This document shows positions 40,280 through 41,606 of a stretch of 64,000 nucleotides of DNA, one piece after another. Where the stretch lies: positions 65,722 through 129,721 of the forward strand of contig CAYYPH010000001.1 in the NCBI GenBank assembly GCA_964473485.1, given 5' to 3'. Below the pieces are notes generated by a model that saw only the letters and a list, made by a program, of their open reading frames with translations, had not been told where the DNA came from and did no database searches. A program made the position numbers and the translations under genes. Every line of letters begins with the position of its first letter. Positions within the stretch are counted from its first letter, which is position 1. Source of the stretch: an uncultured Prolixibacteraceae bacterium (GTDB lineage: Bacteria; Bacteroidota; Bacteroidia; Bacteroidales; FEN-979).

Positions 40280-40576
40280 TTAACAACAACTTTTGTTTTC
40301 CCCGCAATCGCATGTGGGTTCAGTTCCGCGCAGCAAACCATTGATAATGCCGGCGGCGCAACCCACGCCTGATTTTACGGTGATCGCCCCGTCCCTGCAA
40401 TTCCTGGCGCAGGCGCCGCATTCCATGCAATGATCCCGGTTCAGGATAACCGCCTTCTTGTTTTCAAACCCGAAAACGGCATGCGGGCAAACCACCAGGC
40501 ACATGCGGCACCCGGTGCATTTGAGCGGATCAAGCTGCAGGGTGACCACGGAAGAAAGATATAAAAATCCATTCAT
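40280..40576 (-). CDS. hgcB: HgcB, 2x[4Fe-4S] ferredoxin of the mercury methylation pair
   Basis: MNGFLYLSSVVTLQLDPLKCTGCRMCLVVCP..CMECGACARNCR..GVGCAAG..ends NKSCC. That gives two CX2CX2CX3C motifs, an extra internal Cys and a C-terminal vicinal Cys pair. The start lies 1 nt after the hgcA stop. Confidence 0.8.
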   Translation of the reverse strand: MNGFLYLSSVVTLQLDPLKCTGCRMCLVVCPHAVFGFENKKAVILNRDHCMECGACARNCRDGAITVKSGVGCAAGIINGLLRGTEPTCDCGENKSCC

Positions 40577-40577
40577 A

Positions 40578-41606
40578 CTATAAAAATCTTGCAATGATCC
40601 AACCGGTCAATCCCAGCGCTGCCAGCGACACCTGGATCGGCAGTGCGATCTTCATCTCTTTCTGCACCCCTGAAAGGGAGGTGAAGGTGGAGGAACCCGT
40701 GAAATTCATGGCCATAAAGGAGGAGAGGCCTGTTATCATTAAAAACCACGATACCGTCTCGAGCCATGTATCTCCCAGGCTGCCGGCAAGCGTTAGCAGG
40801 ACAGCTGCCGCCAATCCGGTCACCACCCCCTTCGCTGAAAATGGCCTGAAGGGTATCCAGGGCAGCATGGCAGGGGCCAGCAAGCAACCGGCCAGGTACC
40901 CGGAATAGAGGTTGATGGATGATCTCGGTCCGTTCTGCAATGCGACGCTGAACGAGTAGCCGTGAGGGTTTAGCCCGGATAAGAGGATAAAGGCCGCCGG
41001 CACCATCAGCAAATAATATTTGCCGTAAAAAATGTCAACCGGTATCAGCTTGACCCTCTCGGTAAACGGAAATTCAACTTTCCGCATGGCGGCGGTAGCC
41101 CTGAGCCCGGCATCCAAAAACGCCCTGATATCGCATGCGCGCACCGGTCCATACACCACCCGGAAACCCGTCATCCTTGTTACTTCGTGGGCCGCGACGC
41201 CGGTGGCACTGAGCTGCGGAAGAATGAGGGTTTTATGGTCGACCAGTTCGGCCAGGCGGTGATGCCGCACCCGTTTCACCACCTCTTTTGTGCTGAATGT
41301 TCCCTTGCCTGCGGCACACCAGACATTGATGCCGCGGGTCTCGATGACCAGGATCCAGCCATCAACGGTATCGAGGGCACGCCTCAGGTGGTCGAAGCTA
41401 AGCTTGTAATTGGAGGTAACGAAAACCGGCGAATTGGCGCCGGGATTTCCGATGGCATAAATGCCTGGGGTCACGCGGTAATTCATTCGGCCTACCGACC
41501 ACCGGGTCTTGATGGCCCCCCACCGGTCACGGATGGTCCATCGGGTATCAACCCGGGGTATTGAACCGACCCGGGTCTCCATCATGCCGTTGATGAACCC
41601 ATTCAT
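40578..41606 (-). CDS. hgcA: HgcA, corrinoid protein of the mercury methylation pair
   Basis: The cap-helix signature N(V/I)WCA(A/G)GK is present as GINVWCAAGKGTF. The N-terminal half is soluble and CFeSP-like (RVDTRWTIRDRWGAIKTRW..SNYKLSFD). The C-terminal half has about 5 TM helices. Confidence 0.85.
   Translation of the reverse strand: MNGFINGMMETRVGSIPRVDTRWTIRDRWGAIKTRWSVGRMNYRVTPGIYAIGNPGANSPVFVTSNYKLSFDHLRRALDTVDGWILVIETRGINVWCAAGKGTFSTKEVVKRVRHHRLAELVDHKTLILPQLSATGVAAHEVTRMTGFRVVYGPVRACDIRAFLDAGLRATAAMRKVEFPFTERVKLIPVDIFYGKYYLLMVPAAFILLSGLNPHGYSFSVALQNGPRSSINLYSGYLAGCLLAPAMLPWIPFRPFSAKGVVTGLAAAVLLTLAGSLGDTWLETVSWFLMITGLSSFMAMNFTGSSTFTSLSGVQKEMKIALPIQVSLAALGLTGWIIARFL

Follow-up and report, generated by a model that had tools for sequence, protein, structure and literature searches.

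To our knowledge, no genes other than the hgcAB pair are known to determine methylmercury production by microbes. The hgcAB genes of Pseudodesulfovibrio mercurii ND132 are reportedly the subject of a 2013 study by Parks et al. Here, we describe an hgcAB pair that forms genes five and six of a seven-gene arsenic resistance (ars) operon in a 64-kb stretch of genomic DNA from an uncultured Prolixibacteraceae bacterium. This whole stretch of 64,000 nucleotides is referred to as the window, with positions counted from its first letter, and the loci to which it is compared carry numbers beginning with L.

In ND132 as in the window, HgcA combines a cap-helix cysteine with a transmembrane (TM) domain, HgcB carries two [4Fe-4S] motifs, an internal cysteine, and a C-terminal cysteine pair, and a gene of the ArsR family (ArsR2 in ND132) lies 5′ of hgcAB in the same direction. 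Experiments in ND132 demonstrated that its ArsR-like regulator controls hgcAB and responds to both arsenic and S-adenosylhomocysteine (SAH) (Gionfriddo et al. 2022/2023). The two systems differ in their surroundings and in their sensors. ND132 has no other ars genes beside hgcAB, whereas the window pair has a complete ars operon around it, and ND132 ArsR2 has a four-cysteine site, whereas the ArsR of the window has three invariant cysteines at other positions.

Arsenic genes have also been described beside hgcAB in metagenome-assembled genomes (MAGs). McDaniel et al. (2020, mSystems, Fig. 6) depict acr3, arsC, arsM, and arsR flanking hgcAB regions and report that Bacteroidetes dominate hgcA expression in fens of thawing permafrost, Gionfriddo et al. 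place Bacteroidetes including Paludibacter jiangxiensis among the genomes with ArsR and ars genes beside hgcAB, and such neighborhoods appear again in ES&T 2025 (PMC11984097) and ISME Commun 2023 (PMC10349881). The hgcAB–ars linkage is therefore already published, and the window, in which the arrangement is like that of the published neighborhoods with hgcAB immediately beside acr3, arsC, arsM, and arsR, including those in Bacteroidetes, holds a typical example of a described class. In their passages on arsenic and regulators, these papers make no mention of four features described below, namely the fusion of arsC to arsM, the small cysteine-rich gene, its ccdA-like neighbor, and the conserved operator.

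Results

An hgcAB pair lies inside a tightly packed ars operon

Seven tightly packed open reading frames (ORFs) were read from the window sequence on the minus strand between positions 39210 and 44278 (Table 1), in the order arsR, arsC-arsM fusion, small cysteine-rich ORF, ccdA-like gene, hgcA, hgcB, and acr3. A spacer of 63 nucleotides separates arsR from arsC-arsM, and the spacers that follow measure 19 nucleotides before the small ORF, 7 before the ccdA-like gene, 6 before hgcA, 1 before hgcB, and 23 before acr3. At the tightest of these junctions, the TAG stop codon of hgcA is followed by a single T and then by the ATG of hgcB. Past acr3, a convergent gene ends at 39152. A preliminary description of this DNA, made from the sequence alone, had placed hgcAB within an ArsR-headed ars operon that runs in one direction from arsC-arsM to acr3 with gaps of 25 nucleotides or less. 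The measured spacers bear this out, and every sequence feature that it named was found where it had placed it. Its gene list was right for HgcA, HgcB, ArsR, ArsC-ArsM, the CcdA-like protein, and Acr3 and overlooked the 97-residue cysteine-rich ORF.

The same operon is present at 100% protein identity in two independent Logan assemblies (SRR12133404 and SRR12133403), so it is neither an assembly artifact nor a chimera, and because the neighborhood recurs in dozens of species-level genomes, chance is not a plausible explanation either. With arsR at its head and Acr3, ArsM, and ArsR all above curated profile cutoffs, the operon encodes both an As(III) efflux permease and an arsenic-transforming enzyme. 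The ArsM part of the fusion, its C-terminal 270 residues, scores 343.8 bits against the NCBIfam model NF008823 (cutoff 263). Its ArsC domain passes the Pfam model LMWPc with 65.8 bits and falls below the equivalog cutoff of TIGR02691 (123.9 bits; cutoff 174.3). The same fusion occurs in L004, L005, L083, L100, and L106. Acr3 is well conserved, as the window gene and that of L083 share 81% nucleotide and 93% amino acid identity. As a separate observation, acr3 3′ of hgcAB was matched by tblastn in several pieces in L054 (9293-10319), L056 (9319-9839), and L135 (5697-6523), suggesting frameshifts that stem from either pseudogenes or assembly errors.

HgcA and HgcB carry the features of mercury-methylating proteins

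Both proteins were scored with curated profile hidden Markov models (HMMs), a check that the preliminary description had proposed, and both exceed the cutoffs of their own families (Table 1 for HgcB). HgcA scores 427 bits against NF040863 (cutoff 275), with residues 16-341 aligned to positions 1-324 of the 325 in the profile. Membership in the CFeSP (corrinoid iron–sulfur protein) family or among the fused HgcAB-like proteins, which would have contradicted that description, finds no support in the corresponding scores of 77.6 bits for the CFeSP gamma model (cutoff 306) and 207.6 bits for the HgcAB-like fusion model (cutoff 285). The only Pfam match of HgcA is the generic CdhD domain.

The hgcA product contains ETRGINVWCAAGKGTF, in which the cap-helix cysteine is residue 97. 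The motif, NVWCAAGK at residues 94-101, fits the signature N(V/I)WCA(A/G)GK, and 26 homologues show no variation at N94, V95, W96, C97, A99, G100, and K101. Residues 44-164 align with CFeSP structures (2h9a and others; E≈6e-12) such that Cys97 falls on residue 374 of 2h9a, a threonine. The published cap-helix model of HgcA, reportedly that of Parks et al. from 2013, agrees with this placement. The cysteine of the WCAAGK motif is thus homologous to Thr374 of CFeSP, in favor of the cap-helix signature named in the preliminary description.

An AlphaFold model built with the 26 homologues (mean predicted local distance difference test score [pLDDT] of 80.3) shows an α/β corrinoid domain followed by five long helices, predicted at residues 192-209, 219-246, 256-273, 281-306, and 311-341, in line with the approximately five TM helices expected of HgcA. 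A hydropathy scan (threshold 1.6) picked up just two of them, so the structure model was used in its place. The best Foldseek match of the model is 9a0b_A, a deposited HgcAB model to which it aligns over its full length (326 columns, 44% identity), and the next matches are CFeSP structures at 1.5 to 1.9 Å over ≈132 residues. The large subunit of CFeSP (AcsC; 2h9a, 4c1n, 4djd) has a homologous corrinoid-binding domain but differs from the window HgcA by the threonine in place of Cys97, the lack of a five-helix membrane domain, and an extra N-terminal [4Fe-4S] domain.

Directly 3′ of hgcA, HgcB shows the cysteine layout of its family: residues 20, 23, 26, and 30 and residues 50, 53, 56, and 60 form two CX2CX2CX3C motifs, Cys73 lies in GVGCAAG, further cysteines occupy positions 89 and 91, and Cys97 and Cys98 form the C-terminal pair. 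Among 80 HgcB sequences from related loci, all eight cluster cysteines are present in every one, Cys73 in 79, and the C-terminal pair in 65. The 98-residue two-motif ferredoxin of the preliminary description, starting one nucleotide after the hgcA stop codon, is therefore HgcB. At the level of sequence, HgcA and HgcB show every feature by which these families are recognized, and Hg(II) methylation is their predicted activity.

A three-cysteine ArsR and operator-like dyads stand at the head of the operon

The first gene encodes a repressor of the ArsR/SmtB type whose HMM match, conserved cysteines, and upstream dyads mark a thiol-type sensing site at the operon head. Cys41, Cys82, and Cys110 are invariant in 40 of 40 nonredundant orthologues, a pattern that would be compatible with a three-coordinate As(III) site.

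Upstream of arsR, the promoter region contains two operator-like dyads, at 44321-44338 and 44292-44307, that follow the pattern ACGTAT-N3-T(A/G)CG(T/C)NA. The two sites, ACGTATTTATGCGTCA and TCGTATTTTTGCGTCA, are one 29-nucleotide period apart (Tandem Repeats Finder: period 29, 1.9 copies). Across the 64-kb window the pattern has three matches, all of them upstream of arsR, versus 0.65 expected. The two-site layout also occurs 5′ of arsR in at least ten related loci, namely L004, L023, L099, L100, L106, L108, L110, L116, L118, and L130, where ArsR is 63 to 73% identical to that of the window. The second dyad overlaps TATTTTTG, which fits TAnnTTTG, the Bacteroidetes −7 consensus known from Bacteroides promoters. 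As this dyad contains the −7 box, a bound repressor would occlude the promoter. An Rfam scan of the whole window returned no match, so no cobalamin or S-adenosylmethionine (SAM)/SAH riboswitch is tied to the operon.

Arsenic genes flank hgcAB in most related Bacteroidota loci

Searching with the window HgcA yielded 7,930 homologues (E≤1e-20). Identity ranges from 59 to 100% among the best 120, and every named one of these comes from a Bacteroidales or Bacteroidota MAG. With one genome taken per species, at least 594 stretches encode HgcA, the best match being 69% identical. We sampled the 80 best matches to the window HgcA among these 594 or more loci, a set that is not random over all hgcA, and 48 of the 80 are labeled Bacteroidota. 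The preliminary description had called carriers in Bacteroidota few, a view that these numbers do not support. It was right in assigning the DNA to Bacteroidota, given that the best HgcA relatives are Bacteroidales MAGs and that a neighboring gene (31508-34390) encodes a type IX secretion system sorting domain. L009 (SACF01000039.1) is a MAG labeled Alphaproteobacteria whose HgcA is 63% identical to that of the window; this value is within the Bacteroidales range, pointing to mis-binning or horizontal transfer.

Neighborhoods were scored by tblastn with the operon proteins of the window, counting Bacteroidota-labeled loci with enough flanking sequence. Co-directional and 5′ of hgcAB we found ArsC in 27 of 44 loci, and 5′ of the pair ArsR in 28 of 44 and ArsM in 3 of 44. 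Acr3 follows hgcAB directly in 22 of 40 loci, and both ArsC and Acr3 are present in 21 of 37. Any ars structural gene flanks hgcAB in 27 of 37 Bacteroidota loci versus 3 of 24 from other phyla (Fisher p=4e-6). Two species-level genomes, L004 and L005, reproduce the window order exactly, down to the fused arsC-arsM and the small ORF with its ccdA-like neighbor. Embedding in ars genes is thus the majority state in this HgcA clade and not unusual, and the "unusually explicit link" that the preliminary description saw between the two systems is both common in Bacteroidota and already in the literature.

A cysteine-rich membrane pair belongs to the ars backbone

Between arsC-arsM and hgcA lie two genes for cysteine-rich membrane proteins. 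The small ORF matches no Pfam or NCBIfam family, and gene calling overlooked it in L001 and L002, the public contigs identical to the window. It has one hydrophobic segment (residues 36-54), and both its motifs and its place in the operon are shared by 10 genome loci and most metagenome loci. Its relatives (for example L004 6981-7268, L005 1897-2187, and L020 6932-7225) are 75 to 115 residues long, combine an N-terminal DCGC..CCxPKK, one TM helix, and a C-terminal CC(P)K, and lie directly 5′ of the ccdA-like gene in nearly all the loci examined.

The ccdA-like product exceeds the Pfam cutoffs for DsbD_TM (33.4 bits; cutoff 27.1) and DsbD_2 (29.8 bits), placing it in this superfamily. In a profile comparison with the CcdA structure 5vkv (E=6e-5), the second cysteine of its CxC and the first of its CC align with the CcdA cysteines, and the CxC and CCNP motifs correspond to the canonical active-site positions of CcdA with one extra cysteine each. 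C35, C153, and C154 are invariant in all 16 sequences compared, whereas C33 is invariant only when the comparison is limited to the seven nearest relatives. The ArsG encoded 7 kb 5′ in the same island belongs to the same DsbD_TM/DsbD_2 superfamily as CcdA and the ccdA-like protein, and both TM cysteine positions are kept. The ccdA-like protein is nonetheless only 24% identical to this ArsG, is set apart by its extra adjacent cysteines (CxC, CC) and its small-ORF partner, and gave no match to the ArsG equivalog NF040495 at E≤0.01.

A metagenome scan for the ccdA-like gene was seeded with seven closer sequences, which biases the sample toward close relatives. Of the 57 evaluable loci, 40 have hgcA directly 3′ and 17 do not; in most of the latter, acr3, arsM, or arsC takes that place. 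We had considered the small ORF and the ccdA-like gene as a strictly hgcAB-specific mercury (Hg) uptake system and rejected this idea, as the pair occurs without hgcA in these 17 loci, which assigns it to the ars backbone. Possibly the two proteins form a thiol relay or a metal(loid) transporter. Our full-text literature search retrieved no paper tying hgcA to CcdA or DsbD.

hgcAB behaves as a presence/absence cassette

Some related ars operons contain hgcAB and others lack it, so the pair acts like an optional module of the ars backbone, a detail that is new here. The closest relatives of the window CcdA-like protein (L083-L086, L093, L097, L098, and L115; 67 to 75% identical) are from operons that lack hgcAB and read arsR-arsC(-arsM)-small ORF-ccdA-like-acr3. 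L083 is collinear with the window through arsR, the segment from arsC-arsM to the ccdA-like gene (70% nucleotide identity), and acr3, and the sole difference is the ≈1.3-kb hgcAB interval. In five metagenome loci (L136, L149, L155, L156, and L161), arsM directly follows the ccdA-like gene, at the place where hgcAB is found in sister loci; in L136, this arsM (6716-7720; 357 bits) is followed by arsF-arsF-arsG and an ArsE-ArsM fusion.

On a neighbor-joining tree of CcdA, which carries no support values, operons without hgcAB appear in at least five places. Pairwise distances among the CcdA sequences co-vary with those among the HgcA sequences (Mantel r=0.77, 0 of 999 permutations), and the two proteins share nearest neighbors. 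The simplest explanation of these data is that hgcAB has long been linked to the operon and, as a tentative polarity, was lost from it repeatedly. A recent insertion of hgcAB, suggested by the CcdA sister clade without it, is disfavored by the same co-variation and shared nearest neighbors.

The operon closes a larger arsenic island

A ≈12-kb co-directional arsenic island spans 39210-51241 and has the operon at its downstream end (Table 1). The rest of the island, 44346-51241, is a second co-directional cluster with an arsR of its own at the head. Its arsE, arsF, and arsG are aromatic organoarsenical resistance genes. The three DGC-domain genes just 5′ of the operon are also immediate neighbors of arsC-hgcAB in L011 and L012, and the trio lies within a few kilobases 5′ in L016 and in L083, L086, L093, and L115, which lack hgcAB.

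Table 1 Features of the hgcAB-containing operon and the upstream arsenic island in the window.
Feature	Positions	Strand	Evidence and remarks
acr3, arsenite efflux permease, last gene of the unit	39210-40256	−	TIGR00832 447.5 bits (cutoff 282.8)
hgcB, 2×[4Fe-4S] ferredoxin, 98 residues	40280-40576	−	NF040864 120.7 bits (cutoff 99); Cys73, C-terminal Cys97-Cys98
hgcA, corrinoid methyltransferase of mercury methylation, 342 residues	40578-41606	−	NF040863; cap-helix Cys97
ccdA-like membrane protein, 233 residues	41613-42314	−	DsbD_TM superfamily; CxC in TM1, CCNP in TM4
Small cysteine-rich single-pass membrane ORF, 97 residues	42322-42615	−	DCGC..CCPPK N terminus, one TM, ..SCC..SSCCPK C terminus
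arsC-arsM fusion, 410 residues	42635-43867	−	N-terminal low-molecular-weight-phosphatase-type arsenate reductase domain; As(III) SAM methyltransferase
arsR, ArsR/SmtB metalloregulator, 115 residues	43931-44278	−	NF033788 63.4 bits (cutoff 55); Pfam HTH_5/HTH_20; Cys41, Cys82, Cys110
arsR promoter/operator region	44287-44345	−	Two operator-like dyads and Bacteroidetes-type −7 box
DGC-domain gene 1	44346-44795	−	Pfam DGC
DGC-domain gene 2	44808-45200	−	Pfam DGC
DGC-domain gene 3, fused to GcvH-like domain	45190-46050	−	Pfam DGC, GCV_H
Ferredoxin	46043-46336	−	Pfam matches/gene calls in L001
114-residue protein	46333-46677	−	Pfam matches/gene calls in L001
Outer-membrane channel	46713-47738	−	Pfam matches/gene calls in L001
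PKD lipoprotein	47735-48091	−	Pfam matches/gene calls in L001
Pyrroline-5-carboxylate reductase (P5CR)-like oxidoreductase	48256-49017	−	Pfam matches/gene calls in L001
Rhodanese	49070-49486	−	Pfam matches/gene calls in L001
arsG	49488-50186	−	NF040495 309.9 bits (cutoff 200)
arsF	50189-50593	−	NF040494 113.2 bits
arsE	50590-50823	−	TIGR00412 121.9 bits
Second arsR, start of island	50921-51241	−	Start and own TATTTTTG box read from sequence

Two further features of the surroundings were noted. Tandem repeats of 7 to 8 nucleotides (for example GAAAATG, ATTTGAAG, TCTGAAA, and GTAAATC) fill many intergenic leaders just before start codons, in the window at 39156-39201, 43871-43904, 50885-50915, 36801-36937, and 35076-35224, and also 5′ of arsR in the related loci L005, L006, L092, L097, and L098. 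In addition, a stretch of ≈4 kb at 18553-22738 holds no ORF of 200 or more residues, has a strongly negative GC skew of about −0.19, and gave no Rfam match; inside it, tandem repeats of the CCATCCCA type lie at 19909-20053 and 20368-20423.

Discussion

We consider it likely that the window encodes a bona fide HgcAB that shares a transcript with an ars operon derepressed by As(III), which would place the capacity for Hg methylation under arsenic control. From the gene identities, packing, conservation, and operator-like sites described above, we infer how such an operon would work. ArsR, a three-cysteine repressor, would bind the two dyads over the arsR promoter and be released by As(III). Its release would give rise to one transcript, as suggested by the gaps of 1 to 23 nucleotides and the analogy with ND132. 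The products would comprise ArsC-ArsM for As(V) reduction and SAM-dependent methylation of As(III), the thiol-rich membrane pair, HgcA, and Acr3 for As(III) efflux, with HgcB as the ferredoxin that would donate electrons to the corrinoid methyltransferase HgcA. Because HgcA and HgcB have all the sequence features associated with Hg(II) methylation, we predict that the organism methylates Hg and that it does so under arsenic-responsive control, as shown experimentally for P. mercurii ND132.

Several observations weigh against this reading. On the protein side, cap-helix residues 95-102 have a pLDDT below 50 in the HgcA model. On the regulatory side, the effector of ArsR, whether As(III), Hg(II), SAH, or another metal, is predicted from the cysteine pattern only; a scan for sigma-70 promoters and terminators, which does not cover Bacteroidota promoters, gave counts equal to those of shuffled sequences; and internal promoters, for instance inside the ccdA-like gene or in the 63-nucleotide spacer between arsR and arsC-arsM, could be present. 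In ND132, the hgcAB transcript level does not predict the methylation rate (Gionfriddo et al.). McDaniel et al. treat Bacteroidetes carriers as putative methylators, and the literature cited here, which was not searched systematically for this point, contains no Hg-methylation assay on a Bacteroidota isolate.

The strongest rival, which we nevertheless regard as unlikely, is that HgcAB acts primarily on arsenic, either by passing methyl groups to thiol-bound As(III) in a corrinoid-dependent, anaerobic reaction or in another arsenic resistance role. The small cysteine-rich and CcdA-like proteins would then possibly feed HgcAB, and Hg methylation would be a side reaction. The placement of hgcAB between ars genes in most Bacteroidota loci, where arsM is rare relative to arsC, favors this idea, as do the five metagenome loci in which arsM fills the hgcAB slot, although such positional interchange amounts to guilt by association and the window operon has an ArsM of its own, making HgcAB redundant there. 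The published data on ND132 can be read in both directions. Gionfriddo et al. describe an hgcAB deletion strain as more sensitive to As(V) than the wildtype and hgcAB as induced by arsenic, yet they report no mono- or dimethylarsenicals in ND132 cultures, and the authors' own summary states that arsenic resistance is not significantly lost without hgcAB. The native function of HgcAB is acknowledged as unknown in the literature, but no sequence feature sets these HgcA proteins apart from Hg-methylating ones. A more specific form of the idea, in which HgcAB is an oxygen-independent corrinoid methyl (carbanion) transferase that acts on thiol-bound As(III), is interchangeable with ArsM in the slot behind the ccdA-like gene, and is fed by a previously undescribed thiol relay of the small cysteine-rich and CxC/CC CcdA-like proteins, strikes us as quite improbable. 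If it were true, Hg methylation would be a promiscuous side reaction of an arsenic detoxification enzyme.

We attach similarly little credence to mere adjacency, in which hgcAB would be expressed constitutively from its own promoter, unrelated to arsenic, and the genes would share a genomic island and not their regulation. Expression of hgcA was first thought to be constitutive, many hgcAB loci outside Bacteroidota have no ars neighbors, and acr3 is missing downstream in P0002, the closest HgcA relative (80% identity). The gaps of 6 and 1 nucleotides before hgcA and hgcB, however, leave no intergenic room for a promoter, gene order and orientation are kept across loci whose HgcA is 51 to 70% identical to that of the window, and HgcA co-evolves with the ccdA-like protein of the ars backbone. 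In published lake metatranscriptomes, moreover, hgcA preceded by arsR, often with acr3 or arsC nearby, has lower hgcA/gyrB transcript ratios, which links the presence of arsR to lower hgcA expression. By far the least probable alternative is a nonmethylating paralogue, that is, an acetyl-CoA-pathway CFeSP subunit or an HgcAB-like fusion-type protein beside an unrelated ferredoxin, which the generic CdhD match and the JGI label of close homologues ("acetyl-CoA decarbonylase/synthase complex subunit gamma") would favor and which is effectively refuted by the HMM scores and is also opposed by the separate hgcA and hgcB ORFs, the cap-helix cysteine and predicted TM domain that CFeSP lacks, and an HgcB above its own equivalog cutoff with Cys73 and the C-terminal cysteine pair.

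An hgcAB pair under the control of an arsenic-responsive operon thus remains the reading that we favor. The locus alone reveals no new kind of system, and what it adds is anatomical detail. It presents a clean case of arsenic-linked hgcAB, with a full ars operon, a recognizable promoter/operator, a three-cysteine ArsR, and relatives that lack hgcAB. These properties make it a good template for asking whether arsenic exposure turns on Hg methylation in abundant uncultured Bacteroidales, and it may also be of use for asking whether HgcAB contributes to arsenic resistance.

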